From an uncultured Candidatus Saccharibacteria bacterium (GTDB taxonomy: Bacteria; Patescibacteriota; Dojkabacteria; SC72): 64,000 bases of DNA. Shown in pieces: positions 3,074 to 50,897 of the stretch; positions within the stretch are counted from its first letter, which is position 1, and each line of letters opens with the position of its first letter. The translations under genes and the position numbers were made by a program. The notes below the pieces were generated by a model. It had not been told where the DNA came from and ran no database searches. It saw only the letters and a program-made list of their open reading frames with translations. The stretch is taken from positions 29,812-93,811 of the forward strand of contig CAZEQZ010000002.1 of the NCBI GenBank assembly GCA_964514595.1. Direction: 5' to 3'.

Positions 3074-5158
3074 ATGAAAAGAAATCTTAAGGAAAGCAAA
3101 TTAAGATACATGCAACTCTTTGCATCATCCCTACTACTTTCAATATTGACAATAGGAATATATGTATACAACATATCTTTAACTAAGATTCTAAATGAAG
3201 CTCCGTACGATATTGTTGTTGCTAACATATCCACTCTGGATGCACAAATATACTGGAAAGCTGATCCAGACATAATACATACTATTTACTACAAAGAAGC
3301 CTCCGATACCGGACTTTTTAAAGAGATAGAGGGAATGAAATCATATGTTGATGTAATAAAAAATGAAAGAATTAATGTCGTCTCTTTACAAGAGCTAAGA
3401 CCAGATACAAAATATCTCTTCAGAATTGAGTCCGAAAACAATCTCTGGAATAATAATTCCTCATTTAAAACAAAGGATATTGCGCAGGAGGTATATATAC
3501 CTGAAGTAGTTTCAGGATCCACAACCGATATGACTTTTGTTTTAATCGATATCGAAGGAGAAAAATACATGGTTAATACCCAGTATCATGGTACTTGGGC
3601 AATTGATTCTCAATATAAAGAGTATACTGTAACTGAATACGCAAACTATATTCCGAAGGAAGAGCTTCAAACTAGACTTTGGGATCTATTTGGTTCCCCA
3701 GTATATGCTCAATCAGGAGCAAATTGTAAAATGAATATCAAAATTAACAATTATCCCCATCCTCCTTCTAAAGCCAAAACTGTGGACATACTTAATAGGT
3801 GGGTAGCTAGTTGTAAATTAGGAGGATATCCAGATGAATGCTACGGGGATGTATACTGCAGAGCGTTAAAAGCAGGTGTAGATCCTGCCTTTGCAATGAC
3901 AATATGGTCCAATGAGTCCGGAGGGAGTAACTATGCATACTCTTCTAAGGTAGAAGATTTCGGTATTCATGGACTCTCATCCGTACCTGTCGCGAACTTT
4001 GACAAACAGATTAATCACTTCTTAAACAATATTGCTGCCAGAGGATCCGGATATATATCAGGATGTAGTGGAGGAAGTAATATAGATATGTGGGGCGCAA
4101 AATTTTTAACCGGGAATTGTAATAATATTGATAGTGGGAAGAAATATATGACTGGGATATCGGAAGTATATAGTTGGTATACTAACACCTCTCTTTCTTG
4201 GCCATTCACCGTACCCTCTGTTAGCTCTGCATGTGATTACTCCTCTGCGTATACAAATACAACATACAACACATGCGGTGCTAAAGGAACCCCTACAACT
4301 CCACCCCCTACAACTCCAACAAATGTCCCTCCTGGGGGCGATGGTATTAAAGATTTAATGGTGGTAACTGGATCTGGAATAACTCCAAAGGATAGAGATT
4401 GCAAAGATCCTGATGGTTGTATCTGTCTATACGGATACACCAATAGTAATCCAACAGACACTTTAACAATCAAATATGGATACACATGCACAGTAGATAA
4501 GAAAGTTATACTCACTCCTTCCTCCGCTACAAAGGTATGCTGTTTAAGTGACAATTCGGTTTCCTTTGTGGATGAGGATAAATGCTCCGGGAGGAAAATA
4601 GCAAATGTTAAGGAAACAGATTGTAAGGAGCAGGTTGATAGAATTAATATTGTTAAGGGAGTTAACTTTGTACAAATCCCAGCAATAATAAATATAGAGG
4701 AAATTCCAATAGATACTGCCAGATCCTTGGTTTCATACGCTAATAACTCAATACTAGCAGTTGGATTATTTAGAAATGATAGATGGGAGAAGATAGTCAA
4801 GAGTGAGAATGGAGTTCTTAACGGTCAAGACTTTAATTTAGAACCAGGAGATGTGTATATGGTCATATCTACAGAGGATATAGAAATACCATTAAGAATT
4901 GTAAAGATGGAGAAAAGTTTAGATACATCAAAACTTCTAGGATGGAACTTAGTTCCCACCTCTCTTTTTGCAAGCGTGGCTAGTAATTCAAAATCTTTGC
5001 TTCAAAATACCCAGTACTCATATATCAGACAGGTCGCATTATGGAATAATAGTAGCAGTATATTTGAATATACACTACGAGATACCTCCGGAGAAATATA
5101 TGGAGAATCCTTACAAATACAAGATCAGAAGGGCTTCTTCATAAAAATACCACAATAA
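3074..5158 (+). CDS. secreted multidomain protein: signal anchor, FN3-like domain, lysozyme-like/GH73-like domain, Pro/Thr linker, Cys-rich region and C-terminal beta domain
   Basis: N-terminal TM/signal segment. FN3-like segment (DIVVANISTLDAQIYWKA...YLFRIESEN). MTIWSNESGGSNYAY resembles the E-S-G-G catalytic region of GH73/lysozyme-like peptidoglycan hydrolases and also matches ORF 8221. The linker is TPTTPPPTTPTNVPPGG. Many Cys residues follow. Confidence 0.55.
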   Translation: MKRNLKESKLRYMQLFASSLLLSILTIGIYVYNISLTKILNEAPYDIVVANISTLDAQIYWKADPDIIHTIYYKEASDTGLFKEIEGMKSYVDVIKNERINVVSLQELRPDTKYLFRIESENNLWNNNSSFKTKDIAQEVYIPEVVSGSTTDMTFVLIDIEGEKYMVNTQYHGTWAIDSQYKEYTVTEYANYIPKEELQTRLWDLFGSPVYAQSGANCKMNIKINNYPHPPSKAKTVDILNRWVASCKLGGYPDECYGDVYCRALKAGVDPAFAMTIWSNESGGSNYAYSSKVEDFGIHGLSSVPVANFDKQINHFLNNIAARGSGYISGCSGGSNIDMWGAKFLTGNCNNIDSGKKYMTGISEVYSWYTNTSLSWPFTVPSVSSACDYSSAYTNTTYNTCGAKGTPTTPPPTTPTNVPPGGDGIKDLMVVTGSGITPKDRDCKDPDGCICLYGYTNSNPTDTLTIKYGYTCTVDKKVILTPSSATKVCCLSDNSVSFVDEDKCSGRKIANVKETDCKEQVDRINIVKGVNFVQIPAIINIEEIPIDTARSLVSYANNSILAVGLFRNDRWEKIVKSENGVLNGQDFNLEPGDVYMVISTEDIEIPLRIVKMEKSLDTSKLLGWNLVPTSLFASVASNSKSLLQNTQYSYIRQVALWNNSSSIFEYTLRDTSGEIYGESLQIQDQKGFFIKIPQ

Positions 5159-10584: not shown

Positions 10585-11106
10585 ATGAAATTCAAAGTAG
10601 GATCAAAAGTTTTTTACCCCTCACACGGTGCAGGATGGATCAAAGAAGAGAAAGAAATAGAGTTTGATGGCCAAAAAAAGAGATACTTTGAATTCGAGCT
10701 AATTACAAACCCCCTTAGTATATCTACTCCTGTAGATAATGTGGAGAATTTAGGAATTAGGGATGTACTTTCTGTACAAAAAATAAAAGATATTATTAAA
10801 GTTCTAAAAAAGAACTCAAGTGTAAATCCAAAGGTAAAAGATTTTAACATGATGTTAAATATGTTTAAGGATCTAGAAGAGAGTTCTGATATAGAGGCTT
10901 CAATAAAAATAATACAGTATTGTAATTATGTAAAGAAAAGCAGAGAAAAAGAGGGACGATTAATACCTATTAGTATTGAGAAACAGTTAGAAAATGCTAT
11001 CAGGAATATAGTTGGGGAATTGGCAGTATCAAGCGGTACAACATTAAAAACAGCTTCAAAAAACTTCTCAAAAATAACCGGAATAGAGGTTGATATAGAG
11101 GAATAA
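10585..11106 (+). CDS. carD: CarD/CdnL-family transcriptional regulator
   Basis: The N-terminus FKVGSKVFYPSHGAGWIKEEKEIEFDGQKKRYFEFELITNPLSISTPV is the CarD_CdnL_TRCF RNAP-interacting domain. Its length of 173 aa is typical for CdnL. Confidence 0.8.
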   Translation: MKFKVGSKVFYPSHGAGWIKEEKEIEFDGQKKRYFEFELITNPLSISTPVDNVENLGIRDVLSVQKIKDIIKVLKKNSSVNPKVKDFNMMLNMFKDLEESSDIEASIKIIQYCNYVKKSREKEGRLIPISIEKQLENAIRNIVGELAVSSGTTLKTASKNFSKITGIEVDIEE

Positions 11107-11127
11107 TATCCATATAGAACGCAAAAA

Positions 11128-11374
11128 GCAGGATGCCGGACCTACACCGGAACTTCAACATCACCAATTTGCAAGCAAAGTAGAGATGCCTCACAACCCG
11201 AAGGAAGTGAAAAGAAGGAAGGTTCTAATAACCAACAACATCCTGCATAAGCAAGGCGCTGGACCTACACCAGAATACCGAAAACATCGCAATCCTGCGA
11301 ACAGAAAAGAGATGCCCTACAACCCGAAGGAAGTAGAAAACGGAAGATGGTTCTAATAACCAACAACACCTTGC
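11128..11374. repeat. two tandem ~120-nt GC-enriched elements (candidate structured sRNA pair), each closed by a terminal helix
   Basis: Unit A is 11128–11246 and unit B is 11251–11374. They share ggacctacacc, agagatgcc-tacaacccgaaggaagt and ggttctaataaccaacaaca. Unit A is closed by GCAGGATG/CATCCTGC and unit B by GCAAGG/CCTTGC, so the closing helix changed compensatorily. They lie between the convergent 3' ends of carD and ileS. Confidence 0.4.
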
Positions 11375-11468
11375 ATATCATGAGTAAAAACTCAAGTTTT
11401 AAAGAGCGTAGCAAGACTTTAGTAAAAATTTGGCAAGATGTCAATAGCCACAACCGAGCTTATAGTAA

Positions 11469-14438
11469 TCACTCGAAAAGCACCATAACTTTAGTCCCAG
11501 CAATACTAAATCCACCTTCCATATTTTCATCATTTTCAACAACATCTACCTCCTTGGCTTGTAAAGCCTTACTATTCTCCACTACATACTCAGAAAGCAC
11601 CTCACTAGCCTCCCCGCCTTGAAAGAAGAACTTAACTTTAACCATATCATCCATCCTCAGGCCTTTCTTCTTTCTCATGTCTCTATACTTTCTTAAGAAG
11701 TCATTCACTATACCCTCATTTTTTAGTTCATCAGTTATATTAGTATCCAAAGATACATATAACTCATTCTCTCCTACTGTTACAATCCCTTCAGCTTCGA
11801 TGGGTTTCTCCGAAAAAGCAACCTCTTTTAGATTTAACTCTTCCTTTACAATCTTCATCACATAATCATCATCCACACCTACATATGCTTTAGTTAATGG
11901 TTGTCTTAAACTTACTTTAGATATCTCCCTTGCCTGAAGACCATTAGAACAGATCTCTCTAACAATCATCATTTTATCAAGCAATTCTTTATCTACCTCC
12001 TTCTCAGAAAATTCTGGATACTCTTCTAAATGAACTGACTCCTTATGATTTTTAATACCTGCCTTTACAACTAGATTCTGGTATATCTCCTCCGAAAGAA
12101 AAGGCATTTGAGGTGCAAATGTCTTTGCAAACAGCACCATAGTCGCATACAATGTCTGAAGTGCATCCGAACTACCTTCCGCAAACCTATTCCTTGATCT
12201 CCTTATCCACCATTGCGATATATTGTCTATACAGGGCTGTATCAACTTAACCGAAGCAGGGATATTGTACTCCTCCAAAGCATTTGCATACTGCATAGAT
12301 ATACTCTTCATATATGATTCCATCCACTTATCCAGGTTATCTTTCGATGTATACTCTGTACTCTCTGGGGACCAAGCATGTATGTTTGCATACAAAGATA
12401 GATATCTATATGTGTTCCAAAGAGGAATTAATATATCCTTTATTTGCTCATCTAGTAATTCATCTGACCAAGAGATGTCTCCTCCTGCCATAATTGGTGT
12501 GGACATAATATACAATCTCAAAGCTTCACCACCCTTTGCTTCCAACGTTTCTTTTGGATCAGAGTAGTTTTGATATGACTTACTCATCTTTCGGCCATCA
12601 TTCCCAAACATAACCCCAGTACAAACAACATTTTTATATGGTATATCATCAAAAAGAAGAACGGACATTCTGAATAACACATTAAACCACGCCCTTATTT
12701 GCCCAGTATACTCAACTATGAAATCAGCAGGAAACGCATCCTCAAAAGCATCTTTATTTTCAAACGGATAGTGATGCTCTGCAAAAGGTACACTACCGGA
12801 GTCCATCCAACAATCTAGCACCTCAGGAACTCTTCTAAATTCTTTTCCATCCTTTTTCAGAATTAACTGATCACAAACATCTCTATGCAAAGTCATTTTC
12901 TTTCCATTAACTCTATACTCTACCCCACCTTCTTCCTTCTCCACTTTCTCTATCTGATCTGTGTACTCCATCATCTCTTCCATACTTCCAACTACTAACT
13001 GCTCCCCATCCTCACTTTCCCACACAGGCATAATTGTTGCCCAATACCTATTTCTTGATATAGCCCAATCTGGAGAGGTTTCTAAAACATACTCAAATCT
13101 CTTTTTAAAAGTGGCTGGAACCCAATTAATCTTTTTCTGAAGTTCAAGCATCTTAGGCTTTATCTTCTGTATATCGATAAAATATGAATCTTGAGTCATA
13201 TATATCAACGGATTAGCGCCTCTATAGAAAGGAAGTCTATGTATATAATTTTCTGACCTTAACAATTTCTCCTGTTTTTTTAGATCCTCCACAATTAAGG
13301 GGGATGCGTCTCTAATATATATACCCTTCCAATCTTCATCTAACATATTTCCTGCTTCATCTATATGAACCACGACACTAAGACCTAGTTCTTTTCCAAG
13401 ATTAAAGTCCACCTCTCCAAATCCAGGCGCTATATGCAATACCCCTGTACCTTCGTCTGAAACCACATCATCTGAGAGGTACACATGCCAATCTTTCTCA
13501 GTTGCATTGTCAGCATAGAAATCGTATACAGGTTCATACTCCAAGCCTTCTAACTCTGTTCCTTCTATACTCTTTATCACTTCGTACTGATCATCCCCAA
13601 AGGTATATCCCAATCGATCAGTAGCAACAACTAAGTATTCATCCTTATACTTAACTATTGAGTACTCGTATTCCTTGTTCACGGCAAGTGCAAAATTGGC
13701 GGGTATGGTCCATGCAGTCGTTGTCCATGCAACCAACTTAACAGGTTCTCCATTAGTATATTGTTTAAACTTATCACTTTTTAACTTAAACTTAACAAAT
13801 ATTGCAATATCCTCAACATCCTCGTAAGTATCATCCATAGCAACTTCAAAATTCGAAACAGGAGTTGATGCATCCGTGGAATATAACGAAACCCTCTTCC
13901 CTTTATATATATATCCCTTATCCCAAATCTGTTTAAAGGCCCAAATTACAGACTCATTAAATTCTGGATCCATGGTACGATATGCATTGTCCAAATCTAC
14001 CCACCTTCCTATTTTTTCAATATACCATCTCCAATCAGTTATCCCTTTCTCTACATATCTCCTACACTCTCCCACATACTCATCTACACCTATTCTCTCC
14101 TCAATATCTCTTCTATCCTTAACATTCAAATTCTTACTCACCCTTTCTTCTATCGGCAATCCATGACAATCCCAACCCCAAATCCTCCTAACCCTATATC
14201 CTTTCATTGTCCAATACCTTGGGATTATATCCTTAGGTATAGATACTAAAAGAGATGCATAGTGGGGAGTTCCCGTTACGAAAGGAGGCCCATCCACAAA
14301 TGAAAATCTTTTATCTTTCGGCCTACTCTCAACACTCTTTCTAAAAGTATCATTCTCTTTCCAAAACTCAATAAGAGTATCTTCTAAACTACTAAAATTT
14401 GGCTTGGGATTTACCTCTTGTATTTTAGATTTCCCCAT
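11469..14438 (-). CDS. ileS: isoleucyl-tRNA synthetase, eukaryote-like type 2
   Basis: PPFVTGTPHYASLL (HIGH-type region), KMSKSYQNY (KMSKS) and the DWAISRNRYW motif in a 989-aa protein. The N-terminus resembles eukaryote-type IleRS (EFWKEN...KDKRFSF.DGPPF). Confidence 0.85.
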   Translation of the reverse strand: MGKSKIQEVNPKPNFSSLEDTLIEFWKENDTFRKSVESRPKDKRFSFVDGPPFVTGTPHYASLLVSIPKDIIPRYWTMKGYRVRRIWGWDCHGLPIEERVSKNLNVKDRRDIEERIGVDEYVGECRRYVEKGITDWRWYIEKIGRWVDLDNAYRTMDPEFNESVIWAFKQIWDKGYIYKGKRVSLYSTDASTPVSNFEVAMDDTYEDVEDIAIFVKFKLKSDKFKQYTNGEPVKLVAWTTTAWTIPANFALAVNKEYEYSIVKYKDEYLVVATDRLGYTFGDDQYEVIKSIEGTELEGLEYEPVYDFYADNATEKDWHVYLSDDVVSDEGTGVLHIAPGFGEVDFNLGKELGLSVVVHIDEAGNMLDEDWKGIYIRDASPLIVEDLKKQEKLLRSENYIHRLPFYRGANPLIYMTQDSYFIDIQKIKPKMLELQKKINWVPATFKKRFEYVLETSPDWAISRNRYWATIMPVWESEDGEQLVVGSMEEMMEYTDQIEKVEKEEGGVEYRVNGKKMTLHRDVCDQLILKKDGKEFRRVPEVLDCWMDSGSVPFAEHHYPFENKDAFEDAFPADFIVEYTGQIRAWFNVLFRMSVLLFDDIPYKNVVCTGVMFGNDGRKMSKSYQNYSDPKETLEAKGGEALRLYIMSTPIMAGGDISWSDELLDEQIKDILIPLWNTYRYLSLYANIHAWSPESTEYTSKDNLDKWMESYMKSISMQYANALEEYNIPASVKLIQPCIDNISQWWIRRSRNRFAEGSSDALQTLYATMVLFAKTFAPQMPFLSEEIYQNLVVKAGIKNHKESVHLEEYPEFSEKEVDKELLDKMMIVREICSNGLQAREISKVSLRQPLTKAYVGVDDDYVMKIVKEELNLKEVAFSEKPIEAEGIVTVGENELYVSLDTNITDELKNEGIVNDFLRKYRDMRKKKGLRMDDMVKVKFFFQGGEASEVLSEYVVENSKALQAKEVDVVENDENMEGGFSIAGTKVMVLFE

Positions 14439-14710: not shown

Positions 14711-16495
14711 GTGTATAATACTGTGATGAAAACAACCTGGAATCTCAAACTACTATACAACTCCCCAAATGATCCCAATATTGAAAAGGATATAAAAAAA
14801 TCAAAAAGATTAGTTTCTGCATTTTGTAGGAAGTGGGAAGATGATAGTAGATATACTAAGAATTCTAAGGTATTAAAAGAAGCTTTGGATGATTATGAGA
14901 AACTAATACTTTCTAATCCCTTCTGTGACAAACCACTATACTACCTTGCTCTAAAGAATTCCTTAAACCAGACAGATATTGATGTTAAAGCAAAGATGAA
15001 CAAAGTCGGAGATATAGCGACAAAGCTATACAATGAAATACAATTTTTCGAATTAAATATTTCCAAAATTCCCATAGAAAAACAGAAGAAATTATTAACA
15101 AGCCCCGTCTTAAAAGAATACAAACATTTCCTAGAGAGGATATTTCTTCTGTCCAAATATCTCCTAACTGAGAAGGAGGAAAAAATCTTCACATTAACAA
15201 GTAAAACTTCACATTCTAATTGGGTTAGTATGATGGATGAACTACTAGATAAACAATTATTGAAGGTAAACCACGGGGGAAAGAAAAAGATAACTATCCC
15301 ATACAATGAAGTTAACAAGTATTTAGATTCTAAAGAGAAGAAGGTTAGAGATTATGTTGTTAAAAAATACAACGAGGTTAATAACAGGTATCTTGAGATA
15401 GCAGAATTTGAAATTAATTCCGTTTTAGAAAGTAAAAAGATATCCGATGAGTACAGAGGTATTCCAAGACCAGATTTAACAAGACATATATCAGATGATA
15501 TCGATTCTAAAGTAGTAGATACCCTTGTTGAAGCAGTTTCAAACAATTTCAATATACCAAGAGACTTCTATAAACTTAAAGCAAAATTACTCAATCAAAA
15601 AAAGCTAGGATACTACGAAAGAAATGTGCCATTAGGCGACGTGGATATGGAGTATACATTTAACGATGGAATGAAATTAGTCAAAGATACACTCTATGAT
15701 CTTGATTCTGAGTTTGGAGCTATTTTTAATAGGTTTGTGAATGAGGGTCAGGTTGATGTATTTCCTAAAACAAATAAATCGGGGGGAGCATACTGTACAT
15801 CCCCAGAGAAAACATTACCGACATTCATACTTCTAAATCATACCGACAGATTAAATGATGTTTTAACAATAGCCCATGAAAGTGGACACGGTATTCACTC
15901 CGAGATGTCTAAGGTACAAAATTCTCTTAATTGTAACTATCCCATATCATTGGCAGAGGTAGCTAGTATATTCTTTGAGGATTTTGTATTAGAAGAGATA
16001 CTTAAAAATTCTGATGAGGAAACAAAGTTTTCAATATTAACACAGAAATTAAATTCAGATATATCTTCTGTATTCAGGCAGGTAGCTTTCTATAACTTTG
16101 AGACAGAATTACATACTGAATTTAAAAAAAGAGGATATCTAAGTAAGGAGTATATTTCAGATATGTTCTGTAAACACATGCGTTCATATATGGGAGATAC
16201 TGTTTTACAAGATGACAGTATGAAGACGGGCTGGATATATGTAGGTCATTTTAGAAGATTTTTTTATGTCTATTCCTATGCTAGCGGATTACTTATATCC
16301 AAGGCATTACAAAGTATGGTCAGAGAAGATAAAAAGAATATATCTTTAGTAAAGAAACTCCTTAGTTCAGGAAGTACACAATCTCCTAAGGATTTGTTTA
16401 AGGGTATGGGAATTGATATAATGGATAAGGATTTTTGGAATAGAGGGATAATAGAAATAGAAAAATCCCTAAAAGAAATTAAATTGAAAAATTAA
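14711..16495 (+). CDS. pepF: M3B-family oligoendopeptidase F
   Basis: Zinc HExxH motif IAHESGHGIHSE in a protein of the right length with the M3B architecture. The start may instead be the second ATG at 14726. Confidence 0.8.
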   Translation: MYNTVMKTTWNLKLLYNSPNDPNIEKDIKKSKRLVSAFCRKWEDDSRYTKNSKVLKEALDDYEKLILSNPFCDKPLYYLALKNSLNQTDIDVKAKMNKVGDIATKLYNEIQFFELNISKIPIEKQKKLLTSPVLKEYKHFLERIFLLSKYLLTEKEEKIFTLTSKTSHSNWVSMMDELLDKQLLKVNHGGKKKITIPYNEVNKYLDSKEKKVRDYVVKKYNEVNNRYLEIAEFEINSVLESKKISDEYRGIPRPDLTRHISDDIDSKVVDTLVEAVSNNFNIPRDFYKLKAKLLNQKKLGYYERNVPLGDVDMEYTFNDGMKLVKDTLYDLDSEFGAIFNRFVNEGQVDVFPKTNKSGGAYCTSPEKTLPTFILLNHTDRLNDVLTIAHESGHGIHSEMSKVQNSLNCNYPISLAEVASIFFEDFVLEEILKNSDEETKFSILTQKLNSDISSVFRQVAFYNFETELHTEFKKRGYLSKEYISDMFCKHMRSYMGDTVLQDDSMKTGWIYVGHFRRFFYVYSYASGLLISKALQSMVREDKKNISLVKKLLSSGSTQSPKDLFKGMGIDIMDKDFWNRGIIEIEKSLKEIKLKN

Positions 16496-17650: not shown

Positions 17651-17724
17651 TGGTTGCCGGACCTAGATTCGAACTAGGATTAACGGTTTCAGAGACCGTC
17701 GTCCTACCATTAGACGATCCGGCA
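17651..17724 (-). tRNA. tRNA-Gln (anticodon CUG), CCA encoded
   Basis: Minus-strand sequence TGCCGGA-TC-GTCT-AATGGTA-GGAC-G-ACGGT-CTCTGAA-ACCGT-TAAT-CCTAG-TTCGAAT-CTAGG-TCCGGCA-A-CCA. It folds as a cloverleaf with a 7-nt anticodon loop CTCTGAA. Confidence 0.8.
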
Positions 17725-29234: not shown

Positions 29235-29718
29235 TAAGGTGATTAAGAAAAAAACTAAAAAGCTCACTAATGATTTTAAACAGTTTGCTTTTAAAGAGGC
29301 CACACTAGGTGCTGCAGTGGGTATTATGTTAGGTGCTGCATTTAGGGATGTAATAAATTCTTTGGTTAATGATGTCCTTACACCTCCTATTGCATATATT
29401 ACATCTGGTATAGATTTCACTTCTCTATATTTCACATTTGGTTCTACTAAGTATGAGAGTATTGAATTAGCAAGGGAAGCAGGTGCAGTGATTATTCATT
29501 ACGGAAATTTTATTAGTGAGTTCATTACATTTCTAATTACCGCTTTTATTCTATTTCTTTTAGCATATCAAGGTGGAAAGATAGTTAATAGATTAAACAA
29601 AAAAGAAGCGGAAAGGAAGAAAAGTAAAGAGAAGAAGTGTCCGTTTTGTAAATCGAAGATACATGAGGAGGCTACTAGATGTCCGTTTTGTACGAGTAGG
29701 TTAGAAAATGGACGATGA
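29224..29718 (+). CDS. mscL: large-conductance mechanosensitive channel MscL with a C-terminal Cys4 zinc-ribbon extension
   Basis: FKQFAFKEATLGAAVGIMLGAAFRDVINSLVNDVLTPP plus a second TM match MscL. The C-terminus carries CPFCKSKIHEEATRCPFC. Confidence 0.85.
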   Translation: MVDNKVIKKKTKKLTNDFKQFAFKEATLGAAVGIMLGAAFRDVINSLVNDVLTPPIAYITSGIDFTSLYFTFGSTKYESIELAREAGAVIIHYGNFISEFITFLITAFILFLLAYQGGKIVNRLNKKEAERKKSKEKKCPFCKSKIHEEATRCPFCTSRLENGR

Positions 29719-29782
29719 TGGATTTGAACCAACGACCCCTACAATGTGAATGTAGTGCTCTAACCAGCTGAGCTAATCGTCC
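29709..29782 (-). tRNA. tRNA-Val (anticodon CAC), no encoded CCA
   Basis: GGACGAT-TA-GCTC-AGCTGGTTA-GAGC-A-CTACA-TTCACAT-TGTAG-GGGTC-GTTGG-TTCAAAT-CCATC-ATCGTCC-A. There is one U·U mismatch in the T-stem. Its 3' end overlaps the last 10 nt of mscL. Confidence 0.75.
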
Positions 29783-29803
29783 ATAGAAACAATTATATCA
29801 CGA

Positions 29804-36316: not shown

Positions 36317-36393
36317 TGGTGGGCGACACAGGATTCGAACCTGTGACCCTCTCGGTGTAAACGAGATGCTCTGACCAGCTGAGCTAGTCGCCC
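36317..36393 (-). tRNA. tRNA-Val (anticodon UAC), CCA encoded
   Basis: GGGCGAC-TA-GCTC-AGCTGGTCA-GAGC-A-TCTCG-TTTACAC-CGAGA-GGGTC-ACAGG-TTCGAAT-CCTGT-GTCGCCC-A-CCA. Perfect cloverleaf. Confidence 0.9.
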
Positions 36394-36400
36394 ATATATA

Positions 36401-36487
36401 TGCCGAGGACAGGAGTTGAACCTGCACGAGAGTATAAGTCTCACTACCACCTCAAGGTAGCGTGTCTGCCAATTCCACCACCTCGGC
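36401..36487 (-). tRNA. tRNA-Leu (anticodon GAG), type II with a long variable arm
   Basis: GCCGAGG ... CTACC-TTGAGGT-GGTAG, a long variable arm, T arm GCAGG-TTCAACT-CCTGT, acceptor 3' strand CCTCGGC, discriminator A. Confidence 0.85.
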
Positions 36488-36539
36488 ACATTATACAGTG
36501 ATTATTCTAACAAATTAAGCCTTTTTATCCAATACTTAA

Positions 36540-38969: not shown

Positions 38970-39047
38970 CAAAGGGAATAGGCGAGCGTGGAATAGATAA
39001 AAATCTTTTAGACTTCTGAAGTCTAATTATTCCACACTCACCGTTAG

Positions 39048-39121
39048 CGCTCCTGAAAGGATTCGAACCTCTATACAGTCATTCAAAGGCTGACTGGCTT
39101 TTCCATTTAAGCTACAGGAGC
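39048..39121 (-). tRNA. tRNA with an atypical 9-nt anticodon loop (GCCUUUGAA); identity unresolved (Gln-UUG or Lys-UUU), possible pseudo-tRNA
   Basis: GCTCCTG-TA-GCTT-AAATGGAA-AAGC-C-AGTCA-GCCTTTGAA-TGACT-GTAT-AGAGG-TTCGAAT-CCTTT-CAGGAGC-G. All other arms are canonical, including the T-loop TTCGAAT. Discriminator is G73. No CCA. Confidence 0.55.
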
Positions 39122-42695: not shown

Positions 42696-42772
42696 GGAGT
42701 GGTAGCTCAATTGGTTAGAGCATCTGCCTGTCACGCAGAAGGCTGCGGGTTCGAGTCCCGTCCATTCCGCCA
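42696..42772 (+). tRNA. tRNA-Asp (anticodon GUC), CCA encoded
   Basis: GGAGTGG-TA-GCTC-AATTGGTTA-GAGC-A-TCTGC-CTGTCAC-GCAGA-AGGCT-GCGGG-TTCGAGT-CCCGT-CCATTCC-G-CCA. Confidence 0.9.
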
Positions 42773-50762: not shown

Positions 50763-50792
50763 TAACTATATCACATTGTATAATACTACTAT

Positions 50793-50897
50793 ACAGGAGG
50801 GTTGAGAGTTGGTAGAACCTCTCCATGCAAGCCAATACTACCCTGTTGATCAGGATGTGGCGTTTAGTGTGATTTCGGTGCAAGTCCGACCTCCTGT
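50793..50897 (+). ncRNA. candidate structured RNA, 105 nt, with tRNA-like modules (possibly Y-RNA-like or tRNA-like)
   Basis: Terminal 8-bp helix ACAGGAGG/CCTCCTGT. Canonical D-arm-like GAGAG-TTGGTAGAAC-CTCTC containing the consensus D-loop AGTTGGTAGA. T-arm-like TCGG-TGCAAGT-CCGA next to the 3' strand of the terminal helix. About 50 nt lie between them with no standard anticodon arm. Confidence 0.35.

Follow-up and report, generated by a model that had tools for sequence, protein, structure and literature searches.

Tandem cloverleaf units between carD and ileS: a structured RNA family in Dojkabacteria with no match in Rfam

The carD–ileS intergenic region

The window analyzed here is a 64 000-nucleotide (nt) stretch of contig CAZEQZ010000002.1 from an uncultured bacterium of the Dojkabacteria, and the element in question lies between two of its genes that converge on each other: carD, coding for a CarD_TRCF_RID protein (10585–11106, plus strand), and ileS, coding for IleS (11469–14438, minus strand). 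A first-pass annotation, made from the letters alone, described between the two 3′-ends a tandem pair of diverged direct repeats, 11128–11246 (unit A) and 11251–11374 (unit B), as a candidate pair of small RNAs (sRNAs). Both the location and the repeats were confirmed; segments 11126–11249 and 11249–11377 can be aligned over their full length (mean column identity 86%), and a repeat search gave three blocks shared by both units at spacings of 123–128 nt. The conserved blocks that the units were said to share are there as well: the 16-mer ACAACCCGAAGGAAGT and the 20-mer GGTTCTAATAACCAACAACA each match exactly twice in the window, even with three mismatches allowed (chance expectation 0.34 and 0.00, respectively). 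GC content across the units, 0.46–0.475, exceeds the local background of 0.25–0.38 in carD and the spacer (within ileS, values up to 0.43 occur in places), in agreement with the annotation.

The closing helix of unit A is GCAGGATG/CATCCTGC; that of unit B is GCAAGG(TG)/(CG)CCTTGC. At two pairs both sides have changed with pairing kept (G-C to A-U, A-U to G-C), so the reported covariation of the unit ends is real. An RNAalifold check for further covariation, which had been proposed along with the annotation, counted six compensatory pairs between the units over four helices, four of these pairs being in three inner helices. Folding of both units was better than that of shuffled sequence (z-scores −2.7 to −3.9); this result, together with the pairing kept in 41 distinct homologous units (see below), supports the view that we deal with structured RNA rather than a neutral repeat. 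The units belong to a real structured-RNA family that has no match in Rfam 15 or in other sources searched.

Within the 64 kb there were two units and one distant relative; no further copies matched. The identical locus is present on a 162-kb ENA metagenome contig. The nearest named relatives of the CarD protein all belong to Candidatus Dojkabacteria, a lineage once called WS6 within the candidate phyla radiation (CPR).

A common four-way fold

The structure that we tested was hand-curated; it consists of helices P1, P2, P3 (enclosing P3a and P4) and P5. All 41 distinct units share it as a common fold, a four-way ‘cloverleaf’ junction. In a set of 24 distinct units, standard pairs made up 97.2% of 826 cells, and 19 of the 35 pairs were changed on both sides; in the set of 41, 97.2% of 1418 cells were paired and 23 of the 35 pairs were compensatory. 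The 41-unit alignment was fitted to the covariance model (CM), which somewhat favours the structure; an independent MAFFT alignment (A6) gave the same numbers. For these 41 units, none of 500 shuffles reached the observed values of pairing and covariation, and when the 3′ partners were slid by 1–3 columns pairing fell to 36–47%. Compensatory changes were present in every helix except the 2-base pair (bp) base of P3a.

P1 is constant at 8 bp and P5 at 4 bp; P5 carries a 7-nt loop, UGURRGU, and abuts the 3′ strand of P1 with no base between them; neither helix has a gap in the 41 units. P2 has 4 bp and an invariant loop, AUUAG. The 4-bp P3 closes a three-way branch into two hairpins: P3a, interrupted by a UU/UU internal loop and capped by a cUUCGg tetraloop, and P4, free to vary in sequence, length and loop. 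Little or no variation was seen in the junction bases UUGU(A), UUC and UU, and the first 33 nt at the 5′-end of the units, P2 stem included, are near-invariant in sequence.

A long-range fold proposed by RNAalifold for seven units, which would replace the P2 and P5 hairpins, was rejected because the P5 switch from C-G to U-A (33 versus 8 units) and the P2 switches from G-C to A-U covary inside the hairpins and can be explained only by local pairing; the long-range partners proposed were invariant U. Another possibility raised at the outset was that the region is a degenerate remnant of coding sequence. Units are 114–124 nt long, and of the 385 gap runs in the alignment 339 measure 1–2 nt; therefore, no reading frame is conserved and the units are non-coding.

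The units and the helices of unit A, all on the minus strand, are located as follows.

11251–11374: unit B, promoter-proximal, 124 nt, P1 GCAAGGUG/CGCCUUGC; CM R2 score 125.8 bits
11128–11246: unit A, promoter-distal, 119 nt; CM R2 score 129.9 bits; structure checked on the sets of 24 and 41 distinct units
11239–11246 (5′ strand) and 11128–11135 (3′ strand): P1 of unit A
11221–11233: P2 hairpin of unit A, loop AUUAG
11214–11217 with 11153–11156: P3 stem of unit A
11190–11212: P3a hairpin of unit A, UU/UU internal loop and cUUCGg tetraloop
11158–11189: P4 variable hairpin of unit A
11136–11150: P5 hairpin of unit A, 7-nt loop UGUAGGU, abutting the 3′ strand of P1

The RNA strand and the gene model

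The conserved blocks had been listed in plus-strand orientation with no call of strand. The blocks are present; the functional strand is, however, the minus strand. Pairing amounts to 97.2% when read on the minus strand versus 87.3% on the plus strand, and 86 G·U cells versus four C·A cells were counted on the minus strand; read on the plus strand, the 86 would turn into A·C mismatches, and that reading was rejected for these reasons. Also, the extra-stable cUUCGg tetraloop exists on the minus strand only, as do the promoter and the U-run described below. Therefore, the functional RNA runs in the direction of ileS, and the strand asymmetry of G·U and C·A cells shows strand-specific selection on RNA.

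Promoter and terminator scans and comparison with the relatives gave the following features around the units, again on the minus strand.

11439–11444: −35 hexamer, TTGACA
11416–11421: −10 hexamer, TAAAGT (TANNNT in all relatives)
11375–11409: leader of ∼35 nt (CGCUCUUUAAAAC...), ending in AUAU directly before unit B
11381–11394: leader hairpin, UGAGU-UUUU-ACUCA
11247–11250: inter-unit linker UUAU, 4 nt
11123–11127: U5 run directly 3′ of the last P1 strand, terminator-like

In all of the 18 distinct arrays an invariant TTGACA is followed by TANNNT after a spacer of 17 nt, or of 18 nt in a single array; at the ileS loci these hexamers lie between the ileS stop and unit 1, and the distance from promoter to unit 1 is 24–43 nt. 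Transcription would start near 11409, judging from promoter spacing. The leader is conserved in sequence, and in most arrays its hairpin is maintained by compensatory changes (UGAGU/ACUCA, UGGGU/ACCCA, GAGAU/AUCUC, AAGAU/AUCUU), while the short leaders of two loci (L007 and L028; L numbers are our labels of loci) have none. Linkers between units are 4 nt long in every array and read UUAU or UUGU (UURU); the base before every unit is U, and the first base is G in 40 of the 41 units. Directly after the last unit of every array there is a run of 5–9 U, which in the window ends 17 nt from the carD stop codon. At the level of motifs the arrays thus have the promoter and U-run of independent sigma-70-type small RNA genes.

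Since there is a single promoter, a single U-run and linkers of only 4 nt, we read segment 11123–11444 as one predicted independent transcription unit (promoter, ∼35-nt leader, two ∼120-nt units joined by UUAU, and U-run) rather than as two sRNA genes or a cis-acting leader. Of the ‘candidate sRNA pair’, therefore, the structured RNA stands and the two separate genes do not. Independent transcription and the rejection of a cis-acting 5′ leader, both argued in the first-pass annotation, are in line with the putative promoter conserved between the ileS stop and the units, and with the U-run that faces the 3′-end of carD and is followed by no gene on the RNA strand; origin by tandem duplication is supported as well.

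A long-range stem of leader and trailer around the whole array, with a likeness to rRNA processing stalks, is possible at five loci (L013, L021, L035, L012 and L011; leader CUUUAACAGUCUU, trailer AAGACUGUUAAAG) and, with a different sequence, at L028 (UUUAACGUUGU/ACAACGUUUAG). As a general feature it was rejected: it is confined to one clade and L028, its z-scores are weak, and it is absent from the window and its clade.

Homologues and genomic contexts

The comparative search against Rfam 15, also proposed at the first pass, gave no match; homologues with preserved pairing do exist. Related genomes and metagenomes contained 46 units, 41 of them distinct, in arrays of one, two or three. A loop-based pattern run against GTDB species genomes gave 11 loci, all in metagenome-assembled genomes of Dojkabacteria type, some of them labelled Saccharibacteria; a looser pattern gave 16 loci in metagenomes, of which 13 were bona fide, one was the distant relative and two (L024 and L025) were chance matches in GC-rich coding DNA. 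The samples that hold these contigs are from anaerobic digesters, activated sludge and groundwater (e.g. ERZ27252301). As far as these searches reach, the family appears restricted to one branch of Dojkabacteria.

The arrays were seen in three contexts. At >20 loci they lie downstream of ileS on the ileS strand and converge on carD; at two loci (L016 and L030) between a glmS ribozyme and a pcm-like gene, with the same promoter; at one (L031) between two unrelated genes, again with the same promoter. Given these three contexts, the RNA gene is bound to neither ileS nor carD. Related genomes share the carD/ileS neighbourhood in synteny, but with a spacer of varying content: there are two units in L004, three in L007 and L008, and none in L006, L009, L010 and the P0118 locus, where carD and ileS are 5–20 bp apart or overlap by a few bases. 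Unit B is closer to the proximal unit of L007 than to unit A.

IleS proteins of array-bearing genomes are of two forms, 35–37% identical, and the array-less genomes carry one of the two. A link between the array and the type of IleS was rejected on this ground; since IleS forms do not track the presence of arrays, the association of the array with ileS looks historical, not functional. As a separate observation, the syntenic IleS of L007, L012, L015, L021, L006, L009 and L010 are 35–37% identical to that of the window (11469–14438), while identity of CarD and CofD is 60–80%, and IleS identity within the window's clade (L004, L014, L022, L026) is 82–85%; the pattern looks as if another type of IleS had taken the place of the original one.

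The pair of units in L004 (3036–3153 and 3158–3275) shows no difference across the middle ∼96 alignment columns; all changes are confined to P1, P5 and the P5 loop. Such identity suggests gene conversion or a recent duplication with unit-specific closing helices retained, a pattern consistent with neighbouring units of one transcript being kept from mispairing. Such a rule is not strict, as adjacent units of L035 and L037 have near-identical P1. L021 (2786–2904) and L036 have a single unit each, in which P1 is made of a proximal-type 5′ strand and a distal-type 3′ strand and is mismatched; these look like two units recombined into one. In the clade of L021, L035, L036, L037 and L029 there is ∼1 kb between array and carD; in L021 it holds an open reading frame (ORF) of 322 amino acids with an HExxH motif (1738–2706), zinc peptidase-like, with a weak match to DUF5700. 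In L016 the glmS ribozyme (63.6 bits) is just upstream of the single unit (coordinates 4404–4537, minus strand, and 4830–4938); the sequence that follows the unit is N-masked in the collection of genomes, and its unmasked counterpart in L030 is an ordinary spacer.

A distant relative elsewhere in the window

Apart from its counterpart in another contig, the only other CM match in the window and in the loci searched was a single-copy sequence that we call ‘type II’.

50793–50897, plus strand: type II, distant single-copy relative; R1 32.6 bits, R2 31.4 bits, E-values ∼1e-5 to 6e-5

It has the layout of the tandem units, with a long P1, a UUG junction, P2 of the form GUU-GGUAG-AAC and P5 of the form UCGG-UGCAAGU-CCGA that abuts P1; one long central hairpin is found where the tandem units have P3a and P4. 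We consider its kinship to the tandem units probable. Type II is preceded by TATAAT (50780–50785), is situated 10 nt upstream of an ORF of 130 amino acids and diverges from a gene for an APH-family kinase. The counterpart, on an activated-sludge contig (L027 1302–1417, minus strand), has eight compensatory pairs relative to the window copy. As the genes downstream of the two copies are unrelated, type II looks like a free-standing RNA. Neither copy matches Rfam, and a search by synteny for further copies, with homologues of the APH-family and HPr-kinase-like genes, gave none; synteny was not conserved.

Comparison with known RNAs

At gathering thresholds, Rfam 15 models found in the whole window only six tRNAs, all elsewhere; at E ≤ 10 the sole match in 10900–11600 was a chance one to snoR79 inside ileS, and the arrays of relatives had no match. 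With no signal from Rfam or ARAGORN we rejected identity with 5S rRNA, tRNA, signal recognition particle RNA, Y RNA, riboswitch and ribozyme. An origin from phage, plasmid or mobile element was rejected also, as BLAST against phages and plasmids and a pattern search of IMG/VR gave no match. In the literature, full text included, we found no description of such an RNA for Dojkabacteria or CPR, nor of regulatory or structural RNAs for CPR bacteria.

5S rRNA is a three-way junction (helix I; II-III; IV-V) with loop C and loop E consensus. The units, in contrast, form a four-way junction with two short hairpins, they give no Rfam 5S match at E ≤ 10, and the array is absent from close relatives.

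The likeness to tRNA is one of architecture. A closing stem, a small 5′ hairpin, a central arm and a 3′ hairpin with a 7-nt loop come in this order, and the 3′ hairpin adjoins the closing stem without a spacer; closing stem and 3′ hairpin stem have 8 + 4 = 12 bp; U and G occupy positions −1 and +1 at unit boundaries; as in tRNA operons, several units lie a few nt apart under one promoter. Thus the shape features of tRNA that can be read from the alignment are present, while stacking, elbow and cleavage are predicted. The differences are as plain: the units, at 114–124 nt, have no anticodon arm, their central arm splits into two hairpins, and the 5-nt P2 loop (AUUAG) is not a D-loop. The 8/4 split of acceptor and T stems itself is known from allo-tRNAs (Mukai et al. 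2017, PMC5389517).

Bacterial Y RNAs offer another comparison. YrlA and YrlB have ∼100–120 nt, mimic tRNA in part and act as protein-bound particles; more than one can come from a single precursor, and RNase P cuts one of them, YrlA of M. smegmatis (Chen et al. 2014, PMC4201824). They are a precedent for RNAs that mimic tRNA and share a precursor. The array units, of ∼120 nt, are cloverleaf-shaped and up to three per predicted transcript. However, Y RNAs adjoin rsr (Ro60), their 5′- and 3′-ends form the Ro-binding stem and their tRNA-like part is circularly permuted (PMC4201824), while the ends of the array units form an acceptor-like stem, rsr is not adjacent and there is no Rfam match to Y RNA. 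No TROVE/Ro protein was present among ∼30 window ORFs scanned; the neighbours are CarD, IleS, CofD and PepF.

Tandem sRNA paralogues and sponges are represented by PrrF1/2, OmrA/B, LhrC1-5 and CsrB/RsmZ. The arrays resemble them as repeated intergenic RNA modules with their own promoter and with copy number differing between relatives; still, each such paralogue has its own promoter and terminator, whereas here there is one of each per array. A sponge of the CsrB/RsmZ type has short repeated GGA hairpins, with A(N)GGA motifs exposed in the loops, instead of 120-nt four-way junction units, and it was rejected as the sole GGA on the RNA strand is inside the P1 stem and the loops are AUUAG, UUCG and UGURRGU. 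ToxI-type arrays have repeats of ∼34–45 nt in one precursor, presumed to be cut to units, with a terminator and then a gene for the toxin endoribonuclease. Head-to-tail RNA repeats in one predicted precursor with a terminator-like run at its end are alike; yet a type III antitoxin was rejected, since the units have 114–124 nt, no gene comes next on the RNA strand in the window, and the ORF in L021 is DUF5700-like. Tandem riboswitch aptamers (e.g. glycine) share with the array adjacent similar multi-helix junction domains with invariant junction bases, but they are 5′ leaders that control a downstream gene, while the array ends in a U-run with no gene downstream; a riboswitch or cis leader was rejected as the U-run faces the 3′-end of carD and no gene follows on the RNA strand in >20 loci. 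Finally, a repeat of the type of miniature inverted-repeat transposable elements (MITEs) or repetitive extragenic palindromic (REP) elements, which would be expected in many dispersed copies with terminal inverted repeats and no strand asymmetry in the RNA, was rejected on the grounds that only two units match in 64 kb and that G·U cells so outnumber C·A cells.

Function

Invariant bases in junctions and loops, fixed helices, a variable peripheral hairpin and a consensus promoter are traits of RNAs that act through their fold, be they particles, scaffolds, aptamers or ribozymes, not of sRNAs that pair by a seed. From the invariance of these bases, the fixed lengths of P1 and P5, the freedom of P4 and the promoter consensus, we infer a function driven by shape. 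That the locus is a gene for a structured non-coding RNA, with no Rfam 15 match, we regard as shown; for the account as a whole, in which its product would be the precursor of a stable RNA acting by shape, we see about equal reason to accept and to doubt it. As to the function proper, our leading though tentative proposal, put forward with slightly less than even confidence, is that a polycistronic transcript gives rise to a stable RNA, bound by protein and shaped like tRNA. Such an RNA would work by its three-dimensional shape, as protein-bound particle, scaffold or decoy and not as antisense. P1 and P5 would stack into a 12-bp helix, the length of the acceptor/T-arm stack of tRNA, and P2 would meet P5 as in the tRNA elbow; tRNA-processing enzymes would release the units at the UURU linkers, and the number of units per gene, from one to three, would set dosage or valency. 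U(−1)/G(+1) is the preferred context of bacterial RNase P.

Several results weigh against this proposal. The resemblance to tRNA is limited to topology and helix length: ARAGORN found no tRNA gene in 10900–11600, the Rfam tRNA model at E ≤ 10 had no match at the array, and the P5 loop UGURRGU differs from the UUCRANY consensus and from host T-loops, UUCGAAU and UUCAAAU; tRNA identity was rejected for these reasons. No CCA is present in the linkers of the window, L004 and L007 arrays. The P1 of type II has 11 bp, so the rule of 12 bp in P1 plus P5 is not general. A scan for tertiary contacts by mutual information gave one extra pair in P4 only (the loops are near-invariant), and a Pfam scan of ∼30 window proteins gave nothing suggestive of an RNA-binding partner, the neighbours being uninformative. 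An intrinsic terminator would not usually have a stem around ∼100 nt, as P1 does; the promoter, the terminator and the processing sites are predictions from motifs.

In a stronger form of the same idea the units would be true tRNA mimics: an operon would encode them, RNase P and RNase Z would free them at the UURU linkers, and these episymbionts with minimal genomes would use them outside translation, for instance as decoy or regulator of tRNA-handling enzymes or as a handle for a dedicated protein. We regard this form as possible but unlikely; a variant with a new class of self-cleaving or ligand-binding RNA is less likely than the mimic.

The ‘sRNA’ of the first-pass annotation, if meant in the base-pairing sense, did not find support. 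A trans-acting sRNA would pair with mRNAs by the CU-rich, partly single-stranded 5′ part (UUGUAGGUUAUUAGAACCUUCCUUC) or by the loops, with duplication raising the dose; the near-invariant 5′ 33 nt would fit, so would the array's own promoter and U-run, and tandem sRNA paralogues are common in bacteria. Yet the individual units, with linkers of 4 nt, have neither promoter nor terminator, seed-type sRNAs do not typically show a covarying four-way junction whose helices are fixed in length, and the invariance of junctions and loops looks like that of a tertiary fold. The CU-rich stretches have no Shine-Dalgarno (SD) targets: the seed CCUUCC, similar to an anti-SD, has no obvious target in a host that shows no SD and has many apparently leaderless genes, which weakened the anti-SD idea, and base pairing in trans is in our opinion rather improbable. 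Invariant nucleotides round a multi-helix junction are a hallmark of aptamers and ribozymes alike, so that one may think of a riboswitch-like RNA binding its ligand in trans or of a new ribozyme cutting the concatemer into units; head-to-tail units with constant linkers and the position of type II just upstream of an ORF could be read this way. On the RNA strand, however, the array ends in a U-run opposite the carD 3′-end with no gene after it, the genes downstream of type II differ from one copy to the other, and no riboswitch or self-cleaving ribozyme of Rfam 15 matched even at E ≤ 10, which makes this option distinctly unlikely.

With the array situated exactly between converging 3′-ends, on the ileS strand, in >20 loci, one could also speculate about a 3′ element acting in cis, such as an insulator, bidirectional terminator or stabilizer of ileS and carD mRNAs, similar to REP elements or bacterial interspersed mosaic elements; the very stable fold and the U-run adjoining carD would suit this role. 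It would not explain a perfect −35/−10 promoter upstream of the units in every array, nor the presence of this RNA, promoter included, in L016, L030 and L031, where ileS and carD are not its neighbours; close relatives do with carD and ileS 5–20 bp apart or slightly overlapping, and the invariance of loops and junctions goes beyond the needs of a terminator. We think such a role very improbable. A repeat that has decayed or is mobile (pseudogenes of tRNA or 5S, a MITE with terminal inverted repeats or a coding remnant) is hardly credible: copy number does vary from 0 to 3, the single unit of L021 is recombinant-like with a mismatched P1, and P1 could be read as a terminal inverted repeat, but compensatory changes in nearly all helices and the strong strand asymmetry indicate selection on RNA, the 64 kb contain only two copies and one distant relative, no transposase is present, there is no similarity to phage or plasmid and no tRNA or 5S signal, and indels break the reading frame.

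CPR genomes are <1 Mb and tightly packed, to the extent that carD and ileS of relatives nearly touch or overlap; 250–380 bp of non-coding DNA kept under strong structural selection, with a consensus promoter, suggest an important and probably abundant RNA. With covariation support and a working covariance model, the family could be proposed to Rfam. It may serve as a handle on RNA processing and RNA–protein particles in an uncultured phylum and as a case of polycistronic arrays of a cloverleaf other than tRNA; should the units be tRNA mimics, they would form, beside tRNA, 6S and Y RNA, a class of stable RNA specific to the CPR.

Features of the host

No SD motif was visible upstream of most window ORFs (e.g. 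at 14711, 20776, 43496 and 60641), and TATAAT-like boxes are often located 6–8 nt before the ATG of window genes; this suggests that leaderless mRNAs may be widespread in the host. The six tRNA genes of the window are at 17651–17724, 29708–29783, 36317–36488, 39047–39121 and 42696–42772. CCA is encoded in three of them (Gln, Val-UAC and Asp) and not in the other three; therefore, the host needs a CCA-adding enzyme and 3′ trimming, activities that would be relevant if the cloverleaf units were processed like tRNAs.

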